This document shows positions 4,191 through 32,000 of a stretch of 32,000 bases of DNA, in pieces; the stretch's first letter is position 1; each line of letters opens with the position of its first letter. The notes under the pieces were generated by a model. That model had not been told where the DNA came from, did no database searches, and saw only the letters and a list, made by a program, of their open reading frames with translations. Both the position numbers and the translations under genes were made by a program. Source of the stretch: Saprospiraceae bacterium (GTDB taxonomy: Bacteria > Bacteroidota > Bacteroidia > Chitinophagales > Saprospiraceae); assembly GCA_044350425.1 (NCBI GenBank), contig JBILHS010000031.1, positions 13,637 to 45,636 on the forward strand. Reading direction: 5' to 3'.

Positions 4191-4196
4191 GACTTT

Positions 4197-4266
4197 GATG
4201 TATGATGTATGATGTATGAACTATGATGTATGATGTATGAACTATGATGTATGATCTATGATGTAT
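4197..4266. repeat. Ten contiguous heptamers GATGTAT (variants GAACTAT, GATCTAT) with 21-bp higher-order periodicity, filling the fcl-manC junction
   Basis: Units counted by hand from 4197 to 4266. On the minus (mRNA) strand it reads ATACATC and ends 6 nt before the manC ATG (4190). Confidence 0.95.
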
Positions 4267-4273
4267 GGGGTGG

Positions 4274-5239: not shown

Positions 5240-6346
5240 TTATTCAAACTCATTCCGGATCTCAAATCCACCTTGTTTTAAATACTCTTCCCTTTGAAAA
5301 AGTTTAAGATCGCTGGCGACCATTTCAGCCACCAATTCCTCCAGCGTGCGTTGGGCTGACCAGCCTAGTTTTTCCTTTGCCTTGCTGGCATCACCTACCA
5401 ATAGATCTACTTCTGCAGGCCTGAAATAGCGTGGGTCGATGGCGATAACTTCCTGCCCGGCTATTAAGTTCGGGTTGCTCGAATGCGCTATAAATCCACG
5501 TTCCTCTACGCCGCTGCCGCGAAATTCCAGGGTCACCCCCAGCTCATCGAAGGCCATCACACAGAATTCACGTACCGCAGTGGTCTTACCGGTCGCGATG
5601 ACAAAGTCTTCAGCTTCCGCTTGTTGCATCATAAGCCACATGGCTTCCACATAATCGCGCGCATGTCCCCAATCGCGTTGTGCGTCCAGGTTGCCCAGAA
5701 AAAGTTTGTCCTGTAAGCCAAGTGAAATTTTTGTGGCTGCCCGGGTGATCTTGCGCGTCACAAAGGTCTCACCCCGTGTGGGGCTTTCATGGTTGAACAA
5801 AATGCCATTGCATGCAAACATGCCATAGCTTTCCCTGTAATTCACCGTGATCCAGTAGGCATAAAGTTTGGCCACACCATAAGGAGAGCGTGGGTAAAAC
5901 GGCGTGCTCTCCCGTTGAGGCGTTTCCTGTACCAAACCGTAAAGCTCTGAGGTGCTGGCCTGATAAAATCGGGTCTTTTCGCTCAATCCCAATAAACGGA
6001 TCGCTTCTAAAAGGCGCAAAGCCCCCACAGCATCTGCATTGGCAGTATACTCCGGGGTTTCAAAACTCACTTGTACGTGACTTTGGGCGCCGAGATTGTA
6101 CACTTCATCCGGTTGTACCTGCTGCATGATCCGGATGATATTGGTCGAGTCGGTCAGATCGCCATAGTGCAGGATAAAACGTTGATTGTCAACATGTGGA
6201 TCCTGATAAAGGTGGTCTACCCGTTCTGTATTGAAGAGCGAGGAACGTCGTTTGACACCGTGGACTTCGTAGCCTTTTTTTAACAAAAGTTCGGCGAGAT
6301 ACGCGCCGTCCTGTCCAGTGATTCCGGTGATGAGGGCTTTTTTCAT
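5240..6346 (-). CDS. gmd: GDP-mannose 4,6-dehydratase
   Basis: [29 protein letters not shown]...[46 protein letters not shown] is the classic Gmd sequence. 368 aa. Confidence 0.95.
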
Positions 6347-9205: not shown

Positions 9206-9426
9206 AAATGTGGTCAATGTGTTAAATGTGGTCAATGTGTTAAATGTGGTCAATAAGTTAAATGTGGTCAATGTGTTTAATGTGGTCAATGTGATCAATG
9301 GATAAAAGCGGCCAATTTTACCTGGTCGAGCCCAAAACACATTGACCGCATTGACCACATTGACCACATTTAACTTATTGACCACATTTAACTTATTGAC
9401 CACATTTAACTTATTGACCACATTAA
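9206..9426. repeat. 221-bp inverted pair of tandem arrays filling the junction between the dehydrogenase and aminotransferase genes
   Basis: The left arm (9206-9301) is about five copies of the 18-mer AAATGTGGTCAATGTGTT. A spacer occupies 9302-9337. The right arm (9338-9426) consists of 9-mers CATTGACCA / CATTTAACT, the reverse complement of the left unit. Read directly. Confidence 0.95.
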
Positions 9427-11243: not shown

Positions 11244-11285
11244 GATGTATGAGGTATGATGTATGATGTATGATGTATGATGTGT
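11244..11285. repeat. Six heptamers GATGTAT (variants GAGGTAT, GATGTGT)
   Basis: Counted by hand. On the minus strand it reads ATACATC and ends 6 nt upstream of the NUDIX ATG. Confidence 0.95.
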
Positions 11286-11436: not shown

Positions 11437-11500
11437 CAACATCATACATCATACATCATACATCATACATCATAGTTCATACATCATACATCCCTACATC
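11437..11500. repeat. About nine heptamers ATACATC (variants CAACATC, ATAGTTC), the inverted partner of 11244-11285
   Basis: Counted by hand. It abuts the GTG start at 11501 with no gap. Confidence 0.95.
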
Positions 11501-17875: not shown

Positions 17876-17924
17876 ATAGCGCCCTTTTGATCAGCTGATC
17901 AAAAGGGCGCTATTTTATTTTTTT
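17876..17924. terminator. Perfect 38-bp palindrome plus T-tract, terminating the S8 peptidase gene and possibly the convergent lipoprotein gene
   Basis: atagcgcccttttgatcag|ctgatcaaaagggcgctat (17876-17913); all 19 pairs were checked by hand. It is followed by tttatttttttat on the + strand and touches the minus-strand stop codon at 17915-17917. Confidence 0.75.
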
Positions 17925-21582: not shown

Positions 21583-22062
21583 ATGCAACTCATCGGTGAA
21601 TATCCGGTGTCCCTTGACGACAAGGGCCGCTTGCGCTTACCAACCGCGCTGCTCCGCCAATTACCTGCTTTAACCGCAGGATCCAATGGCGACGGAGCTG
21701 CTTATGAATTTGTAGTAAACCGGGGGTTTGAGAAGTGTCTCACACTTTACCCCAAACCGGTCTGGGACGGCATCGCTGCCAAGTTGAGCCGTCTCAATAG
21801 TTTCAATGACCGGAACCGCGCCTTTGTACGCTCTTTTCACTACGGAGCGTATCCACTGACCACCGACAGCGCGGACAGAATCCTTTTGCAGAAGCCTTTG
21901 ATGGATTATGCGGGTATCACCAAGGATGCAGTACTGCTTGCTATGAACGGCAAGGTTGAAATCTGGTCGCCAGAGCAATATGCTTCCACCGCCGCCTTTG
22001 ATCCGAATGAATTTGCTGATTTGGCAAATGACGTGATGGGCGGGGAGAACGATGATGTATAA
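21583..22062 (+). CDS. mraZ: Transcriptional regulator MraZ
   Basis: MQLIGEYPVSLDDKGRLRLPTALLRQL with a second half-domain ...TTDSADRILLQKPL. 159 aa. The TAA at 22060-22062 lies inside the first heptamer array. Confidence 0.93.
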   Translation: MQLIGEYPVSLDDKGRLRLPTALLRQLPALTAGSNGDGAAYEFVVNRGFEKCLTLYPKPVWDGIAAKLSRLNSFNDRNRAFVRSFHYGAYPLTTDSADRILLQKPLMDYAGITKDAVLLAMNGKVEIWSPEQYASTAAFDPNEFADLANDVMGGENDDV

Positions 22063-22095
22063 GGTATGAAGTATGATGTATGAAGTATGATGTAT
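22054..22095. repeat. Six heptamers GATGTAT (variants AAGGTAT, GAAGTAT) overlapping the mraZ stop codon
   Basis: Counted by hand. Confidence 0.95.
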
Positions 22096-22143
22096 GAAAG
22101 GCTTAAGCTGAATGCGAGAGTGCATTTTCAAGCTTAGTTTTTC

Positions 22144-22199
22144 ACACATCATACTTCATACATCATACATCATACATCATACATCATATATCATACATA
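22144..22199. repeat. Eight heptamers ATACATC (variants ACACATC, ATACTTC, ATATATC, ATACATA), the inverted partner of 22054-22095
   Basis: Counted by hand. It ends 2 nt before the rsmH ATG at 22202. Confidence 0.95.
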
Positions 22200-22201
22200 A
22201 T

Positions 22202-23146
22202 ATGGTGTACCACGAGTCTGTCCTATTACACGAAAGCATTGATCTACTAGGCATTACGCCTGGTGGGGTTTATGTAGATGCGACGTTTGGCGGCGGCGGT
22301 CACTCCAAATTGATACTCGAAAAAATGGGCGAAAAAGGTCGCCTGTTTGCCTTCGATCAGGATGAGGATGCTAAGCGAAACACGGAACAGCAGGCGTTTT
22401 CAAGCCATTCTGGCTTTGTTTTCATTCCATCGAATTTCAGGCATTTGAAACGGCAATTACGTGCAGAAGGCGTAAGACCAGGCACTGTAAATGGAATCCT
22501 TGCAGATCTGGGTGTAAGCAGCCACCAGCTGGATACAGCAGAAAGGGGATTCTCTTATCGATTCGAAGCAGCACTCGATATGCGGATGAGTCGCCTGGAT
22601 GGGGAAACAGCTGCGGACATACTCAATACACGAAGTGCAGAAGAACTGCAGCGCATTTTTAGCGAACTTGGGGAGTTGAGAAACTCTAAAACGCTGGCAC
22701 ATGCAGTGATACAGGAGCGGGAACGAAAGCGTTTTCGAACCACAGGCGACCTGCTGGAATTGGCTACCAAGAATCTGATGGGAGAACGTATGCGCTACCT
22801 CTCACAGGTTTTTCAGGCCTTGCGCATGGAAGCTAATGATGAACTCGGGGCGCTGGAAGATTTTATGAAGGATGCTTTGGAAATGCTGGCGCCGGGTGGA
22901 AAACTGGCAGTGATCACCTTTCATTCGCTGGAAGATCGAATGGTGAAGAATTATATGAAAGCGGGCAATGTAGCGGGAGAGCCGGACCAGGATTTTTATG
23001 GCAATATCACAAAGCCCTGGAAACTGGTAACCAAAAAGCCTGTAGAAGCAAGCCAGGCAGAAACCAAGCAAAATGCCCGCTCCAGAAGTGCAAAGCTTCG
23101 GGTCGCCGCAAAAAATGTAACTAACGAACAATTTAAAACGAAATAA
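22202..23146 (+). CDS. rsmH: 16S rRNA (cytosine1402-N4)-methyltransferase
   Basis: MVYHESVLLHESIDLL...YVDATFGGGGHSK...ITFHSLEDRMVKN. ATG 22202 was chosen because the upstream part of the ORF-track entry is a translation of the repeat. Confidence 0.93.
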   Translation: MVYHESVLLHESIDLLGITPGGVYVDATFGGGGHSKLILEKMGEKGRLFAFDQDEDAKRNTEQQAFSSHSGFVFIPSNFRHLKRQLRAEGVRPGTVNGILADLGVSSHQLDTAERGFSYRFEAALDMRMSRLDGETAADILNTRSAEELQRIFSELGELRNSKTLAHAVIQERERKRFRTTGDLLELATKNLMGERMRYLSQVFQALRMEANDELGALEDFMKDALEMLAPGGKLAVITFHSLEDRMVKNYMKAGNVAGEPDQDFYGNITKPWKLVTKKPVEASQAETKQNARSRSAKLRVAAKNVTNEQFKTK

Positions 23147-23176: not shown

Positions 23177-23485
23177 ATGGCTAATAAGTTGCTTAATGCC
23201 CTTAACGTAAGTCGCCACACCACAGATCTGGTGTTTGGTAATTTTCAATTTCTGCTCTTTATAGGCGGATTGGGTATTCTGTACATCGCCAATGCACATT
23301 ACTCTGAAAAAGGGGTGCGGCGTATTCAGTCGTTGCAGAAGGAAATAAAAGAGTTGAAATGGGAATATACCTCGATCAAAAGTGAAACGATGTATAAGAG
23401 TATGCAGAGTCAGATTGATGAGAGTCTGGAGCCTGTAGGGCTTGATTTGGAGAACAAAGGTCCTAAAGTGATAAGTGTTAAGTGA
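23177..23485 (+). CDS. ftsL: Bacteroidota-type cell-division protein FtsL
   Basis: 102 aa, with a single TM helix (FQFLLFIGGLGILYIANAHY) followed by a coiled coil (IQSLQKEIKELKWEY). It occupies the conserved position between rsmH and ftsI. The TGA lies inside the repeat array. Confidence 0.8.
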   Translation: MANKLLNALNVSRHTTDLVFGNFQFLLFIGGLGILYIANAHYSEKGVRRIQSLQKEIKELKWEYTSIKSETMYKSMQSQIDESLEPVGLDLENKGPKVISVK

Positions 23486-23498
23486 TAAGTGTTAAGTG
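23464..23498. repeat. Five heptamers of the type (A/T)TAAGTG, with a 14-bp higher-order unit ATAAGTGTTAAGTG, overlapping the ftsL stop
   Basis: Read directly: aaagtg ataagtg ttaagtg ataagtg ttaagtg. Confidence 0.9.
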
Positions 23499-23524: not shown

Positions 23525-23926
23525 ATGGAAAATCAACGACCTAATAAAGTGGTACTAAGAGAAAAGAGTTTTTTACGGGCCATTAGAATTGTCAGGCTCC
23601 GTAAGCATTTGCGCGAACAAAAAAAGGAGTATGAAATATCGAGGTAGTTGTTCAAGAGTGGTACAAATCCAGGCACAATGGTTAAGGAGTCAGAGTATGC
23701 GCAGTCGGGAGCTGATTTTATAAATAAGCTAAAAGTCGCCCAAAAGGAATTGAATGAAACCAGATATTGGATTGAACTGCTTTTTGCTACTGACTACCTC
23801 TCAGAATCTGAAAAAGTGTCCATTCTAAATGATGTGGATGAAGTAATGAGATTAACGACCAGTTCAATTAAAACTCGAAAAGCCAATCTCGAATCAAGTA
23901 AAAAGCACAGCTCTAAAACCACTTAA
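23525..23926 (+). pseudogene. Four-helix-bundle protein gene (23S rRNA intervening-sequence protein / Avd family, PF05635-like) with an in-frame TAG at 23645-23647
   Basis: Hand translation from ATG 23525 gives MENQRPNKVVLREKSFLRAIRIVRLRKHLREQKKEYEISR*LFKSGTNPGTMVKESEYAQSGADFINKLKVAQKELNETRYWIELL... It is collinear with the family pattern ...EKSF.F...I..L...L...KEY.LSKQLLRSGTSIGAN..EA...QS..DF..KL.IA.KE..ET.YWL.LL. The stop falls where the family has Gln (CAG to TAG). Confidence 0.75.
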
Positions 23927-23947
23927 TACTAACCACTTAACACTAAC
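23920..23947. repeat. Four heptamers CACTTAA / TACTAAC / CACTTAA / CACTAAC, the imperfect inverted partner of 23464-23498
   Basis: Read directly. It contains the TAA stop of the four-helix-bundle ORF and ends 3 nt before the ftsI GTG (23951). Confidence 0.9.
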
Positions 23948-26478: not shown

Positions 26479-28035
26479 ATGCTTTTAACCTATCTCCTTC
26501 AAAACCTGCATGTGCTCGAAGCACAAGGCAATACAGACATCGAAATCGGACAGATCCGTTTCGATAGTCGTGCTGTGCAGTCTGGAGATGTGTTTGTGGC
26601 GGTACGTGGTGCAGCGGTAGATGGGCATCAGTTCATTGACAGGGCGATTGAAAATGGGGCGGTTGCGGTTGTTTGCGAACGTCCAAGTGATTTTTTGGTT
26701 GAAAGGGACCATACTGATAGTCTCACTTCAAGTGAGACTATCAGTATGGTCCCTTTCAACCAAAAAATCACTTGGATCAAAGTCGCCGATGCTACAGAAG
26801 CACTCGGACAAATAGCTTCCAACTTTTACGGCAATCCTTCTGCAGCCTTAACCCTGATCGGCATCACCGGAACCAATGGAAAAACAACCACGGCTACCTT
26901 GCTCTGGCAACTTTTTACGGCATTGGGCTACAAATGCGGTCTGATCGGAACCGTCGAAAACAGGGTAGGGGAAGAAGTATTGGTGAGTACCCACACTACA
27001 CCAGATGCGGTTCGGGTTCACGAACTGATCCGCAAAATGGCTGATGCTGGTTGTAGTCATGTGTTTATGGAAGTCAGCAGCCATGCGGTGCATCAACGTA
27101 GAATTGCAGGGGCGACGTTTGCCGGCGGGGTTTTTACCAACCTAACCCATGATCACCTCGACTATCATAAAACCTTTGCAGAATACCGGGATACCAAAAA
27201 GAAGTTCTTTGACGATTTGCCAAAAACGGCCTTTGCGCTGACCAATGCCGATGATAAAAACGGGGCGATCATGTTGCAAAACACCCGGGCTGACAAGAAA
27301 TCCTATGGTTTGAAAAAGCCGGCTGATTTCAAAGCAAAGATCATAGAAAATAGCCTGGAGGGGCTGCATTTGGAGTTGGATGGGGCGCAAATTCACGCCC
27401 GGATGATCGGTGAGTTCAATGCTTACAACCTGACTGCTGCCTATGGCGTGGCTATGTTGCTTGCTCAGAACCAGACCTCGGAGGTTTTAAAAACCTCCGA
27501 GGTCTACCAAACGACCCTCCTGACCGCACTCAGCAATCTCTCCGGCGCAGAAGGCCGGTTCGACTATATCAACCACTCGTCAAAACCCGGTTGTATCGGA
27601 ATCGTAGACTATGCCCACACCCCGGATGCGCTTGAAAAAGTACTGGAGACCATCGCCAAACTGAAAAAGAAAAACTCCCGCATTATCACGGTTACCGGTG
27701 CTGGCGGAGACCGGGACAAGACCAAACGACCCATCATGGCTCAGGTTTGTGCCAGATTAAGTGACCAGCTAGTTTTGACCAGCGACAACCCGAGGACGGA
27801 AGACCCGGCTGCAATTCTGAAAGATATGGAAGCCGGTTTGGATGCAGCAGGACTAAAGAAAACACTCACCATCCAGGACCGTGAACAAGCCATAAAAACA
27901 GCTATCCGGCTGGCCGGCCCGAACGATGTGATCCTGGTAGCTGGAAAAGGCCATGAGAAGTATCAGGATATACAAGGCGTAAAATATCCTTTTGATGACA
28001 AACAGATGTTGTCAAAGTTTTTTGAGGAAAAATGA
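26479..28035 (+). CDS. murE: UDP-N-acetylmuramoyl-L-alanyl-D-glutamate--2,6-diaminopimelate ligase, carrying two in-frame palindromic segments
   Basis: GITGTNGKTTTA P-loop, ...DYAHTPDALEKVL... and ...LTSDNPRTEDP... are canonical MurE blocks. 518 aa. Confidence 0.93.
   Translation: MLLTYLLQNLHVLEAQGNTDIEIGQIRFDSRAVQSGDVFVAVRGAAVDGHQFIDRAIENGAVAVVCERPSDFLVERDHTDSLTSSETISMVPFNQKITWIKVADATEALGQIASNFYGNPSAALTLIGITGTNGKTTTATLLWQLFTALGYKCGLIGTVENRVGEEVLVSTHTTPDAVRVHELIRKMADAGCSHVFMEVSSHAVHQRRIAGATFAGGVFTNLTHDHLDYHKTFAEYRDTKKKFFDDLPKTAFALTNADDKNGAIMLQNTRADKKSYGLKKPADFKAKIIENSLEGLHLELDGAQIHARMIGEFNAYNLTAAYGVAMLLAQNQTSEVLKTSEVYQTTLLTALSNLSGAEGRFDYINHSSKPGCIGIVDYAHTPDALEKVLETIAKLKKKNSRIITVTGAGGDRDKTKRPIMAQVCARLSDQLVLTSDNPRTEDPAAILKDMEAGLDAAGLKKTLTIQDREQAIKTAIRLAGPNDVILVAGKGHEKYQDIQGVKYPFDDKQMLSKFFEEK
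26682..26776. repeat. Perfect 95-bp palindrome (47-bp arms, central C at 26729) inside murE
   Basis: All 47 base pairs were verified by hand. The core GATAGTCTCACTTCAAGTGAGACTATC lies at 26716-26742. Confidence 0.97.
27473..27505. repeat. Perfect 33-bp palindrome (16-bp arms, central A at 27489) inside murE
   Basis: agacctcggaggtttt a aaaacctccgaggtct, verified by hand. It encodes (Q)TSEVLKTSEV(Y). Confidence 0.95.
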
Positions 28036-28136: not shown

Positions 28137-28169
28137 GGTTTTGGGGCGATGAAATATCGCCCCAAAACC
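28137..28169 (+). other. Perfect 14-bp stem with a 5-nt loop in the 232-bp murE-mraY spacer (possible attenuator or processing site)
   Basis: ggttttggggcgat gaaat atcgccccaaaacc, read directly. There is no clear T-tract after it, so it is not called a terminator. Confidence 0.5.
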
Positions 28170-29531: not shown

Positions 29532-30914
29532 ATGAAAAAGCGAATCGTCATATTAGGCTCCGGAGAATCCGGTACAGGAGCGGCCCTACTGGCCCGACAC
29601 CTGGGCTATGACGTATTCGTATCGGATAAAGGCGCGATCAAAGCACAATATCAGGCAGAATTGAACGAAGCAGGTATTGCCTGGGAAGAAAACCAGCATA
29701 CGCTGGATCAGATATTGAATGCTCAGGAGATTATAAAAAGTCCGGGTATTCCTGAAAAAAGTGAAGTGATGAAAGCCGTGCGGGAAAAAGGTATCAACGT
29801 GATCGGTGAAATTGAATTTGGATATCGTCATGCCGGCAAGTGCCAGATCGTTGCTATTACCGGCTCCAATGGTAAAACGACGACTACCGAGTTGACATAT
29901 CACCTGATGAAAACCGCCGGATTGGATGTCCGTAAAGGTGGAAATGTGGGCAATTCATTTGCCCGAATGGCGCTGGAAGATCTGAAATCGAAGAGAACAA
30001 AAGCCGCTGAACGGATTTTTGTTTTGGAGGTTTCAAGCTTTCAATTGGATGATATTCAGCAGTTTAGACCTAAAATAGCGATGCTGTTAAATATTACTCC
30101 GGACCATTTGGACCGCTACGATTATAAATTGGAAAACTATGCGGCGTCTAAGTTTCGGGTGACTATGAATCAAGGCCGCGGCGATAAGTTCATTTACAAT
30201 GGGTTTGATCCGATCCTGAAAGTTCATCTTGATAGTCTCACTTCAAGTGAGACTATCAAGATGAACTTTCAGGATCGGATCAAACCCAAACAAATCGCCA
30301 TTCGAAAAGGCTTTTTCAAAAACGGCCAGATCAAAGTAGGAAAAGATTTCTACGACATGACAAAAAGTGCCCTTCGGGGCCCGCACAATATGTTCAATGC
30401 AGTGTGTGCCATTCGGGCATCCTTGTTGTTGGGTGCAGCTGCGGACAAAATTCAGGAAGGTTTGAACACATTTACACCACCCCCTCACCGCTTGGAAAAG
30501 GTGGCTGAGATCGGTGGCGTAACGTGGATCAACGATTCGAAAGCAACCAATGTAGACTCAGTTTTCTACGCCCTGCAGGCGATGGATGTGCCGACGGTGT
30601 GGATCGTTGGCGGCCAGGACAAGGGGAACGATTATTCGCCACTCTTGAAATTGGTGAAAAAAAAGGTGAAGGCCATCGTTTGCATGGGTGTAGATAATTC
30701 AAAGATAATCAGTGTGTTCGGCGGAATTAAGAAGCCAATGGTAGAAACAGGAAGTGCCCAGGAAGCTGTAAAGGCAGCGGCAAATTTTGCCAAATCCGGA
30801 GATGTCATATTGCTCAGCCCGGCTTGTGCGAGTTTTGATTTGTTCAAAAATTATGAGGATCGAGGAGCGCAGTTTCGGGAAGCTGTTTTACAAATCACCC
30901 ACTCACCAAAATAA
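29532..30914 (+). CDS. murD: UDP-N-acetylmuramoylalanine--D-glutamate ligase, carrying one in-frame palindromic segment
   Basis: KKRIVILGSGESGTGAALLA Rossmann-like start, the AITGSNGKTTTT P-loop and ...SPACASFDLFKNYEDRG. 460 aa. Confidence 0.93.
   Translation: MKKRIVILGSGESGTGAALLARHLGYDVFVSDKGAIKAQYQAELNEAGIAWEENQHTLDQILNAQEIIKSPGIPEKSEVMKAVREKGINVIGEIEFGYRHAGKCQIVAITGSNGKTTTTELTYHLMKTAGLDVRKGGNVGNSFARMALEDLKSKRTKAAERIFVLEVSSFQLDDIQQFRPKIAMLLNITPDHLDRYDYKLENYAASKFRVTMNQGRGDKFIYNGFDPILKVHLDSLTSSETIKMNFQDRIKPKQIAIRKGFFKNGQIKVGKDFYDMTKSALRGPHNMFNAVCAIRASLLLGAAADKIQEGLNTFTPPPHRLEKVAEIGGVTWINDSKATNVDSVFYALQAMDVPTVWIVGGQDKGNDYSPLLKLVKKKVKAIVCMGVDNSKIISVFGGIKKPMVETGSAQEAVKAAANFAKSGDVILLSPACASFDLFKNYEDRGAQFREAVLQITHSPK
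30200..30288. repeat. Perfect 89-bp palindrome (44-bp arms, central C at 30244) inside murD
   Basis: All 44 pairs were verified by hand. The same core GATAGTCTCACTTCAAGTGAGACTATC lies at 30231-30257. Confidence 0.97.
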
Positions 30915-30929
30915 ACAAATAAACAACGA

Positions 30930-32000
30930 ATGCCAACCATCGCGCTAGAAATGGAACGCTTAAGAAACCCGTACTCCGGTCTGGGGCAATACTGCCTCCA
31001 ACTGGGTCGTGCGTTTGCAGCCGAGGGATCGGATGCAGGCCTGGGTTTTGCTTGCCTCGTTCCTGCCGAGCGTAAAGGCGAGTTTGGTCATGAAATGACT
31101 TATAAATCCGTGAAACCCTGGCACAAGATCATCGGACCGTCTTTTGGAGAGTCTCTATGGCACTGCATGCATCAGGATTCGGAATATATGCCACGCAGTC
31201 GCAGAACACCGCTGGTAATCACGATTCACGACCTGAATTTTCTAGATCGCCCGGATTATTCGGAAACCCAAAAGAGCCATAAACGGGCTGTCATTCAGCG
31301 TAAGATCGACCAGGCAAAAGGCCTGGTGTATATATCAGAGTACGTGCAGGATTGGGTGCGGCAGCATTTGAACGTGCCGGCCGGAATGGTGGAGCAAGTG
31401 ATTTACAACGGAGGGAGTATCAAGTTTCAAGATTCAAGTAAAAAGTTTCAAGGTGCCAGGAGCGAGAAACCTTTTCTTTTTTCAATTGGCATTCATCCGA
31501 AGAAGAACTACCATGTTTTGATGCCACTTTTGGCAGAATTAAAAGCTTATAAATGGATCATTGCAGGTCCAGATAGTAGAGGATATCGCGCAAAAATTGA
31601 GCAGGAGGCCGCGAGATTTGGTGTGTCTGATCGAATTGAATTTTGTGGACCGGTAGGAGAGGAAGCGAAAATGGAATATTACCGGAACTGTACAGCACTG
31701 CTTTTTCCTTCACTATCCGAAGGATTCGGGTTGCCGGTAATTGAAGCCATGTCGTTTGGGAAACCGGTTTTCCTTTCAAATCTCACCAGCCTCCCGGAGA
31801 TCGGAGGTGGAGAAGCATATTATTTCAGTGATTTTGAGCCTAATACTTTAATAGAGGCTTTTGCCAACGGTATGAAACAGTTTGAAAATAGCCCTGGCAA
31901 AGGCGAAAAATTAAAGTCCTGGGCTGCCCAATTCACCTGGGAAAAATCAGCTAAACAATACTTTGAGTTTTACCAAAAAGTACTAGCCACTCCAAACTAA
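30930..32000 (+). CDS. GT4-family (GT-B fold) glycosyltransferase
   Basis: C-terminal ...LLFPSLSEGFGLPVIEAMSFGKPVFLSN... (EX7E-type region). It is complete, with TAA at 31998-32000. It sits where ftsW usually follows murD. Confidence 0.8.
   Translation: MPTIALEMERLRNPYSGLGQYCLQLGRAFAAEGSDAGLGFACLVPAERKGEFGHEMTYKSVKPWHKIIGPSFGESLWHCMHQDSEYMPRSRRTPLVITIHDLNFLDRPDYSETQKSHKRAVIQRKIDQAKGLVYISEYVQDWVRQHLNVPAGMVEQVIYNGGSIKFQDSSKKFQGARSEKPFLFSIGIHPKKNYHVLMPLLAELKAYKWIIAGPDSRGYRAKIEQEAARFGVSDRIEFCGPVGEEAKMEYYRNCTALLFPSLSEGFGLPVIEAMSFGKPVFLSNLTSLPEIGGGEAYYFSDFEPNTLIEAFANGMKQFENSPGKGEKLKSWAAQFTWEKSAKQYFEFYQKVLATPN

Follow-up and report, generated by a model that had tools for sequence, protein, structure and literature searches.

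The DNA analyzed here, referred to as the window, is a stretch of 32,000 nucleotides from a Saprospiraceae bacterium (GenBank assembly GCA_044350425.1, contig JBILHS010000031.1, positions 13,637 to 45,636 of the forward strand). Two Mur ligase genes of its dcw cluster, murE and murD, carry long perfect palindromes that are read through in frame. We describe these palindromes, the dispersed 33-bp repeat found at their centers, and their probable origin as copies of a repetitive extragenic palindromic (REP) element whose arms were later lengthened. Positions are those of the window, and palindromes are listed without a strand. Loci used for comparison carry L numbers, and orthologous proteins P numbers.

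26479..28035, + strand: murE (UDP-MurNAc-tripeptide synthetase), host gene, 518 aa, with two in-frame palindromic inserts; NCBIfam NF001126 equivalog, 591 bits
26682..26776: 95-bp perfect palindrome (47+1+47) in murE, translated as PSDFLVERDHTDSLTSSETISMVPFNQKITW
27473..27505: perfect 33-bp palindrome (16+1+16), third of those described here, lying in frame in another MurE loop; DNA AGACCTCGGAGGTTTT-a-AAAACCTCCGAGGTCT, peptide QTSEVLKTSEVY
29532..30914, + strand: murD, host gene, 460 aa; Pfam domains MurD_N, Mur_ligase_M, and Mur_ligase_C matched in the L058 gene, which is identical
30200..30288: 89-bp perfect palindrome (44+1+44), in frame in murD, peptide GFDPILKVHLDSLTSSETIKMNFQDRIKP; core at 30228-30260

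An earlier note on this DNA had reported the murE palindrome as perfect and centered on C26729. A repeat search bore this out, with arms at 26682-26728 and 26730-26776 that are 47 nt each and 100% complementary around that single central base. The palindrome lies within the 518-aa open reading frame (ORF) and keeps the frame open, as the note had claimed, and the peptide of the MurE insert is DHTDSLTSSETISMVPFNQK. The mirrored ORFs described at 26621-26815 (+) and 26628-26822 (-) were also recovered, each containing VIFWLKGTILIVSL. The arm found matches in 0 of 100 shuffles of the window, and six perfect palindromes with arms of at least 10 nt were counted in the window versus 0.2 expected from shuffles. 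As RNA, the murE palindrome would form a 46-bp stem (-87 kcal/mol, z = -18).

A window-wide scan identified the murD palindrome, a sister copy that had been overlooked. It has 44-nt arms around a central C, gives the MurD insert peptide VHLDSLTSSETIK, and as RNA would fold into a 43-bp stem (-79 kcal/mol, z = -20). The central 29 bp, TGATAGTCTCACTT-C-AAGTGAGACTATCA, are common to the murE and murD palindromes. The third perfect palindrome, also missing from the earlier note, turned up in a scan for shorter palindromes. It has the same 16+1+16 layout as the core of the other two, belongs to a different sequence family, and is common to L057. No Rfam family matched the window at gathering thresholds.

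The exact 518-aa MurE protein was found on at least eight contigs from separate samples. Two independent contigs, L058 (JGI) and L059 (ENA), each differ from the window by one single-nucleotide polymorphism over 10.5 kb and from each other by an indel further downstream, and their palindromes are identical to those in the window. The murE palindrome is confirmed as a real feature.

For MurE, the 120 best matches were listed and the first 60 aligned; for MurD, 120 orthologues were compared. The expectation that MurE is over-long was correct: at 518 aa it is the longest seen, the orthologues having 484-515 aa. At the position of the 95-bp palindrome, which we call site 1, a short loop with no insert joins the AVV strand to the following one in basal orthologues, so the residues are extra, as had been proposed. 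Variants of SD-SLT-x-SETIT-W occupy exactly this site in many Saprospiraceae. In their site 1 DNA, L057 holds a palindrome of 39 bp with a single mismatch, L073 and L072 hold perfect ones of 41 and 61 bp, respectively, and L056 has a decayed copy. The earlier note had allowed for an ancestral loop whose peptide orthologues would encode in non-palindromic DNA; the peptide-bearing orthologues L057, L072, and L073 are palindromic in their DNA. At the second MurE loop, basal orthologues again have no insert, and other Saprospiraceae carry other palindrome-like peptides.

The MurD orthologues are 442-483 aa long, with insert-free basal forms of 443-446 aa. In close relatives, the MurD loop holds core-type or other palindrome-type peptides (RVTSSHPV, LTTQSRQT, DSLTMSETIT). 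To judge from these alignments, the Mur ligase loops are recurrent landing or retention sites for REPs in Saprospiraceae. An AlphaFold2 model of the window MurE (mean predicted local distance difference test score, pLDDT, 77.6) places residues 67-97 in a coil, with pLDDT below 50 for 73-94, between confident strands at 63-66 and 98-102. The insert is thus predicted to behave as a tolerated, disordered loop, in line with the earlier suggestion of a loop.

The 33-bp repeat family and its RAYT-like gene

The center of both long palindromes belongs to a repeat dispersed well beyond the window.

26713..26745: REP core inside the murE palindrome, 33 bp = 11 codons, TDSLTSSETIS; ACTGATAGTCTCACTT-C-AAGTGAGACTATCAGT, identical to the family consensus

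In one-genome-per-species GTDB data, the 21-nt center AGTCTCACTTNAAGTGAGACT was found at 55 loci, nearly all from Bacteroidota. Its hosts are Saprospiraceae, Lewinellaceae, Prolixibacteraceae, Sunxiuqinia, Chitinophagales, a Labilibaculum isolate, and a Pedobacter isolate. They include isolates and long-read metagenome-assembled genomes (MAGs), with assemblies made by differing methods. Exact copies of the 21-nt core lie at 10 loci in MAG JBJXGZ, and six copies lie at five loci in DATGYU; in the source organism, 32 kb were examined and two copies of the 33-bp unit are present there. A viral-contig scan for the core gave no match. An adapter or linker origin was considered and rejected, as the core is present in isolates and in assemblies made by differing methods and is not known to match hairpin or linker adapters.

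The earlier note had described the murE insert as an unexpected element in an essential gene. Extra and in frame it is, and it turned out to be one copy of this dispersed 33-bp REP family, which is tied to a RAYT-like transposase (RAYT, REP-associated tyrosine transposase). Across 61 distinct copies, drawn from loci L001-L057 and the window, the conserved unit is 33 bp with the 16+1+16 consensus ACTGATAGTCTCACTT-N-AAGTGAGACTATCAGT, and sequence information falls to about zero past position 16-17 from the center. The unit is mostly intergenic, in either orientation, and extra degenerate half-sites are often nearby.

About 10 copies are genic and in frame. Their Pfam-confirmed hosts are a UvrD helicase, a kynureninase, a DAO-type oxidoreductase (one identical site in two genomes), a beta-helix/PA14 protein, a 3-dehydroquinate (DHQ) synthase, and a methyltransferase. 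All genic copies share a single reading frame, T-D-S-L-T-(S/L)-S-E-T-I-S, which encodes a hydrophilic peptide and is stop-free if the center base is C or T. By direct reading, a second frame is also open (LIVSLxVRLSV), and the third contains TGA and TAG stops.

No target-site duplication of at least 3 bp was detected: direct repeats of 3, 4, and 5 bp flank 1, 1, and 0 of the 61 units, which is the chance level. AT was observed on both flanks in 16 of the 61 units, including both window copies; being self-complementary, it is ambiguous between a 2-bp target duplication and part of the palindrome. The foot of the unit reads GTAG...CTAC in the GGTAG variants (L001, L022, L047, L049, L053). At L046 (~6076-6156), a REP core has 40-nt perfect arms whose outer part resembles a bidirectional terminator, with T/A runs flanking a GC-rich stem, and a REP may have entered the tip of an existing hairpin there.

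An ORF of ~200 aa lies 30-70 bp from a copy in six loci from two orders (L011, L017, L029, L036, L044, L048). Copies flank the ORF on both sides in L017, L036, L044, and L048, and on one side in L011, L029, and L061. Its sole family match is the NCBIfam REP-associated tyrosine transposase (NF047646), with E = 1e-10 to 1e-12, and its best PDB sequence match, E. coli TnpA-REP 4er8, is marginal (E = 0.55). In an alignment of 11 of these proteins, NHFH (HuH) is invariant. Within the tyrosine motif, Y, I, N, and P are invariant as well; the motif is YIHxNP in 10 of the 11 (YIHNNP in several) and YILNNP in one. We found 276 homologues at E < 1e-10 across Bacteroidota, and the named ones are labeled "transposase" or "Transposase IS200-like domain". 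Lengths in the family are 190-260 aa, mostly ~200.

The variable stretch just past HuH holds REP-encoded peptides, namely DTDSLTQSETIS (L048), TESITLSETLS (L036), and AVTSSHRLT. Three genes carry their own REP in frame between the HuH and tyrosine motifs:

L036, 4674-5285: RAYT-like gene
L048, 2648-3313: RAYT-like gene
L062, 1501-2145: RAYT-like gene, with two REP copies inside and two on each side

The L062 gene is accompanied by a different cognate 33-bp palindrome, ATTCAGGCGGTGACTT-C-AAGTCACCGCCTGAAT, found upstream, inside, and downstream. Saprospiraceae RAYT-like genes are flanked by differing 33-bp palindromes of one design. We also observed that the corresponding MurD and MurE loops in other Saprospiraceae (P0124-P0151, P0185, P0187, and the murD of L057) contain RVTSSHPV, TVTSSHRLT, and repeated LTTQSRQT, peptides typical of other palindromes. 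The L057 murD DNA reads GGGTGACTT-C-AAGTCAC, which is the center of the L062-type REP.

Probable lengthening of the hairpin arms

The 33-bp unit accounts for the center of each long palindrome, and its outer arms could be compared with those of close relatives in both genes.

30200..30221, + strand: ancestral MurD codons TGGGTTTGATCCGATCCTGAAA (N-G-F-D-P-I-L-K), template for the arm extension; also in L056 and L057
30267..30281, + strand: newly templated 15 nt TTTCAGGATCGGATC (F-Q-D-R-I), from the alignment of the window with L056
30282..30288, + strand: pre-existing AAACCCA (K-P codons), complementary to TGGGTTT at 30200-30206; present in L056
26692..26718: left-arm 27-nt lineage-specific segment of the murE palindrome, from DNA of the window, L056, L057, L072, and L073
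26740..26766: right-arm mirror of the 27-nt segment, from the same comparison

The arms of the murD palindrome are 22 nt long in the closest relative, L056 (MurD 94% identical), and CCG-AAACCCA comes next. The window has the 15-nt tract in place of this CCG, and the tract exactly matches the reverse complement of left-flank bases 30207-30221 (GATCCGATCCTGAAA). The copied tract ends at AAACCCA, which in L056 is already complementary to TGGGTTT (7 nt) without the extension; at this microhomology the copying may have gone back to its normal template. The net effect is +12 nt (four codons) and a doubled arm length. The left-flank peptide FIYNGFDP(I/V)(L/V) is kept in nearly all of the 120 MurD orthologues, including palindrome-free ones, and KPKQ or xPKQ is common among them, while the right-arm peptide FQDRI was found in the window lineage only (P0121, P0122). 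Because the left flank is conserved, FQDRI is confined to this lineage, and the match is an exact reverse complement, host codons appear to have been copied backwards onto the other side of the hairpin. As aligned, the change shows the signature of template-switch (quasi-palindrome, fold-back) copying.

In murE, the window palindrome equals the L057 state plus 27 nt per arm, and the 27-nt segment is not in the 39-bp L057 version. The idea of the 95 bp as one insertion was therefore not borne out, since palindromes of 39, 41, and 61 bp occupy this site in relatives and the rest appears to be later arm growth. A core plus one inverted flank copy was rejected for murE because the added 62 or 64 bp is not a multiple of three and relatives share the outer arm ends. 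As this simpler scheme fails on lengths and shared ends, we adopted a two-step 33 + 21 bp reconstruction. We infer a 39-bp state plus 54 bp, possibly a second 33-bp unit and a 21-nt templated extension to the older outer arm ends CCAAGTGAT/ATCACTTGG. Insertion of the second unit at the exact center of the older one was also rejected, as the predicted sequence differs from that observed.

Three observations show arm growth to be a general process. First, the perfect palindromes at MurE site 1 (41 bp in L073, 61 bp in L072, 95 bp in the window) have differing outer arms around one core. Second, the one-arm mismatch of L057 (CTCGCTT/AAGTGAG) is symmetric in L072 (CTCGCTT/AAGCGAG). Third, family-wide arm complementarity at positions 17-24 is 64, 52, 57, 48, 33, 36, 43, and 31%, where conservation is about zero and some 25% would be background. 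The two arms also covary at variable position 11 in 98% of copies and at variable position 15 in 92%, and perfect arms of at least 22 nt were observed in 11 of 60 family copies.

Origin of the palindromes and related systems

We consider it probable that the murE palindrome is a REP-type copy of a Bacteroidota REP/RAYT system whose arms later grew by inverted copying, and that it is selfish or neutral. The unit would be the 33-bp "double-foot" hairpin of the consensus. Judging from family membership, it would be spread by a RAYT, an HUH/Y1 single-strand DNA transposase that would move hairpins via single-stranded DNA and whose own gene (~200 aa, NHFH and YIxNP, subclass 2.4-like) is flanked by the same hairpins. 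Because the unit is 33 bp, or 11 codons, with a stop-free frame for a hydrophilic peptide, copies that land in flexible surface loops could survive. Such survival would account for the copies in MurE (two loops, two REP families), MurD, UvrD, kynureninase, AroB, and others.

Both Mur ligase insertions of the core are old, since many Saprospiraceae share decayed or variant forms while basal orthologues have none, and we take the length and perfection seen in the window to be secondary and recent. At an existing hairpin, a polymerase would switch template in replication or repair (by nascent-strand fold-back or strand switch), copy the flank of one arm inverted onto the other side, and return at a short complementary stretch. 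Such copying would lengthen the arms and wipe out mismatches. The cost to the host would be a further disordered stretch of protein and an mRNA hairpin of high stability, and the element is most likely selfish or neutral, with no use to the host. We class the element among the REPs of a RAYT system that is subclass-2.4-like and found in Bacteroidota; the window copies are intragenic, a documented exception (PMC3733652) to the extragenic location in the class definition.

Several points weigh against this explanation. The RAYT-like proteins score 41-48 bits against NF047646, below the curated cutoff of 80, so we treat them as distant relatives and not equivalogs; a Pfam search of these ORFs gave no match. 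Most copies have ATAG...CTAT or AGAG...CTCT feet, leaving the usual 5' GTAG foot in the minority. Neither a RAYT gene (tblastn) nor an intergenic REP copy is present in the 32-kb window, which leaves an active REP/RAYT system in the source genome, of which these 32 kb were covered, putative. No recent pair of empty and filled sites was found, only ancient presence or absence among orthologues, so we infer mobility and do not observe it. For the 27-nt murE segment, blastn-short against the window and all loci returned self matches only, with no donor or asymmetric intermediate, and a single metagenome scan with an 18-mer gave nine unrelated chance matches and no donor for the inner arm segment (21-27 nt). 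For the murD event, polarity is argued by parsimony from one close relative. Finally, the sequence alone gives no distinction between a template switch and a transposase-nick-primed fold-back.

A bolder reading, which we think unlikely, is that a RAYT lineage and its 33-bp hairpins have adapted to protein-coding loops, and that an element-linked fold-back, possibly primed by a RAYT nick, actively lengthens the hairpins as it copies host codons backwards. If loops are indeed a REP habitat, this would explain why four unrelated REP families are all 33 bp, why genic copies use one frame, why the same MurE and MurD loops have been re-colonized in many Saprospiraceae, and why none of the three window copies has a mismatch. 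On this view, REPs would again and again supply essential enzymes with new antisense-derived peptide.

A narrower variant keeps the same REP origin and lets the transposase lengthen the arms: a RAYT would nick at the hairpin foot, and the folded-back 3'-OH would prime synthesis along the opposite flank. HUH/Y1 enzymes as a family do leave a free 3'-OH beside the hairpin, arms beyond the consensus are common (the 11 of 60 copies above), and the longest arms flank RAYT genes or sit in the window. We nevertheless hold this to be quite unlikely, as quasi-palindrome template switching gives the same pattern without a special enzyme and no RAYT is known in the 32 kb seen of the source genome.

The hairpins might instead be a nucleic-acid structure selected for the dcw operon, such as an RNase III site, translational pause, mRNA stabilizer, cruciform, or protein-binding site. 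Two extreme hairpins (-87 and -79 kcal/mol), both perfect, do lie 3.5 kb apart in one operon, and in E. coli REPs influence mRNA decay and 3'UTR regulation. A selected structural role is disfavored because conservation of the long arms is lacking even among the closest relatives, which have 22-nt arms or none in murD and a decayed or 39-bp version in murE. The arm sequences are also lineage-specific, and no Rfam family matches. We judge this explanation improbable.

Nested insertion, in which the 33-bp unit entered the tip of an older, longer murE hairpin so that the long arms predate the core, has a possible parallel in the core nested in the terminator-like hairpin of L046, and hairpin tips are single-stranded targets. 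It requires an unexplained 62-bp perfect palindrome already in murE, and such an outer palindrome without the core was not found among the 120 best MurE matches listed (first 60 aligned). Relatives show the core without those arms, and in murD the short-armed state precedes the long-armed one, which makes this scenario very improbable.

An ordinary ancestral loop, meaning an old selected MurE/MurD peptide whose palindromy is incidental, would fit the SD-SLT-x-SETIT-W relatives at the same MurE position. It is hardly tenable, being already contradicted by the same 33-bp DNA, which turns up in genes of no relation and, for the most part, in intergenic sequence on either strand; basal orthologues also have no such segment, orthologue DNA is palindromic too, and the segment is predicted to be disordered. 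Perfect palindromes are the classic product of fold-back chimeras and all window evidence comes from metagenome assemblies, yet an assembly or fold-back artifact absent from cells is very unlikely, close to negligible, because independent contigs from separate samples and pipelines carry identical palindromes, 95 bp is shorter than a typical read, the frame is open in two essential genes, relatives hold shorter versions at the same sites, and the core occurs in isolates and long-read MAGs.

Among known systems, the closest to the REP reading is REP/RAYT subclass 2.4, which corresponds to RAYT group 4 of Bertels. TnpA-Y1 proteins of this subclass average 194 aa, have NH[IFV]H and YIxNNP motifs and "double foot" REPs, are abundant in Cyanobacteria and Bacteroidetes, and include in-frame REP copies within the transposase gene just past HuH (Quentin et al. 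2018, PMC6006769). Alike are the dispersed short palindromes flanking a single ~200-aa HUH/Y1 gene, NH[IFV]H and YIxNNP-like motifs, the double-foot hairpin, REPs inside the transposase gene, the occurrence in Bacteroidetes, and REP sequences that co-vary with the RAYT lineage. Unlike that subclass, the window copies lie inside essential housekeeping genes, the foot is mostly ATAG/AGAG and not GT[AG]G, the arms reach 44-47 nt through apparent copying of host sequence, and the proteins fall below the NCBIfam RAYT cutoff. The earlier note knew of no equivalent in Bacteroidota. This holds for copies inside housekeeping genes, which we did not find described there, and not for REP/RAYT systems as such, which have been described in the phylum (PMC6006769).

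Intragenic REPs and Rickettsia palindromic elements (RPEs) share with the window copies that they are tolerated in-frame palindromic inserts of 10-30 extra residues, with DNA repair genes such as UvrD among the hosts. RPE-1 elements, at about 100-150 bp, are longer and imperfect as palindromes. RPE-4 and RPE-6 have been equated with CGTC REPs, and many intragenic REPs are listed, UvrD being among their hosts (Di Nocera et al. 2013, PMC3733652). The analogy to RPEs drawn in the earlier note was therefore apt in kind; we do not claim membership, since the host is a member of the Saprospiraceae. RPEs belong to another phylum, are probably unrelated in sequence, and are not described as growing arms from host codons.

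Small non-autonomous repeats of inverted symmetry, sometimes in frame in genes, also occur among the DDE-type MITEs (miniature transposable elements with inverted repeats), such as Correia and Nezha. The REP unit differs in having no target-site duplication of at least 3 bp, in being one hairpin and not terminal inverted repeats around a body, and in its association with a Y1 and not a DDE gene.

Template switching homogenizes and expands inverted repeats (PMC7202029 for E. coli; PMC8794818, PMC8604942, PMC13100816). Quasi-palindrome events resemble those proposed here in that a clustered change perfects and lengthens a repeat, the new bases are the reverse complement of the opposite flank, the return is at microhomology, and several neighboring amino acids are rewritten at once. 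Here, by contrast, the seed would be a mobile REP in essential bacterial genes, and the 15-nt tract and 89-95-bp palindromes exceed the events of a few nucleotides usually reported. Nematomorpha mitochondrial genes also contain long perfect coding inverted repeats (Mikhailov et al. 2019, PMC6649704), in frame in functional genes as in the window. There, each arm codes for conserved regions of animal mitochondrial proteins and no mobile element is implicated, whereas the window palindromes occupy a dispensable, predicted disordered loop and appear REP-seeded.

We did not find in the literature a description of the 33-bp REP family, of repeated colonization of Mur ligase loops in Saprospiraceae, or of a REP hairpin growing by inverted host-codon copying into a ~90-bp perfect coding palindrome. 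By definition, REPs are extragenic, and nearly all work on them has been in Proteobacteria; the present ones are Bacteroidota REPs in frame in essential cell-wall genes, and they recur at the same protein loops across one bacterial family. If the proposed origin is right, REP dispersal and template-switch mutation are linked, giving selfish hairpins a route to long coding palindromes and new protein segments. The palindromes also bear on how mRNAs with 43-46-bp perfect stems are translated and escape RNase III, and on how 90-bp perfect palindromes survive hairpin nucleases. In practice, inserts of this kind make proteins appear over-long and can pass for MAG assembly errors.

Other repeats and gene order in the window

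Further repeats were observed outside the Mur ligase genes. Two arrays at 9206-9300 and 9338-9424, each of about five 18-nt units (AAATGTGGTCAATGTGTT), are inverted and face each other in a spacer that has a DegT-type aminotransferase gene on one side and a UDP-glucose-dehydrogenase-like gene on the other; they may be protein-binding iterons or another repeat element. Tandem arrays of a TGATGTA-type heptamer lie at 4196-4267, at 11244-11283 with 11439-11492, and at 22052-22098 with 22142-22202. Two of these are inverted pairs around short unique segments, one pair being located where the dcw cluster starts, between mraZ and rsmH, and the arrays look like another small repeat-element family.

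Between ftsL and ftsI, a small PF05635 gene (23S-rRNA-intervening-sequence / four-helix-bundle) at ~23678-23926 is flanked by inverted AAGTGAT/AAGTGTT heptamer arrays at 23466-23498 and 23917-23947. It looks like an insertion, because the closest relative, L056, has no such gene there. A 38-bp perfect palindrome without a loop lies between convergent ORFs at 17876-17913 and is terminator-like, and a hairpin with 14-nt arms was observed in the murE-mraY spacer at 28137-28169. Between murD and ftsW, a group-1 glycosyltransferase gene occupies 30930-32000, an unusual position in the dcw order that is also seen in L056 and L057.

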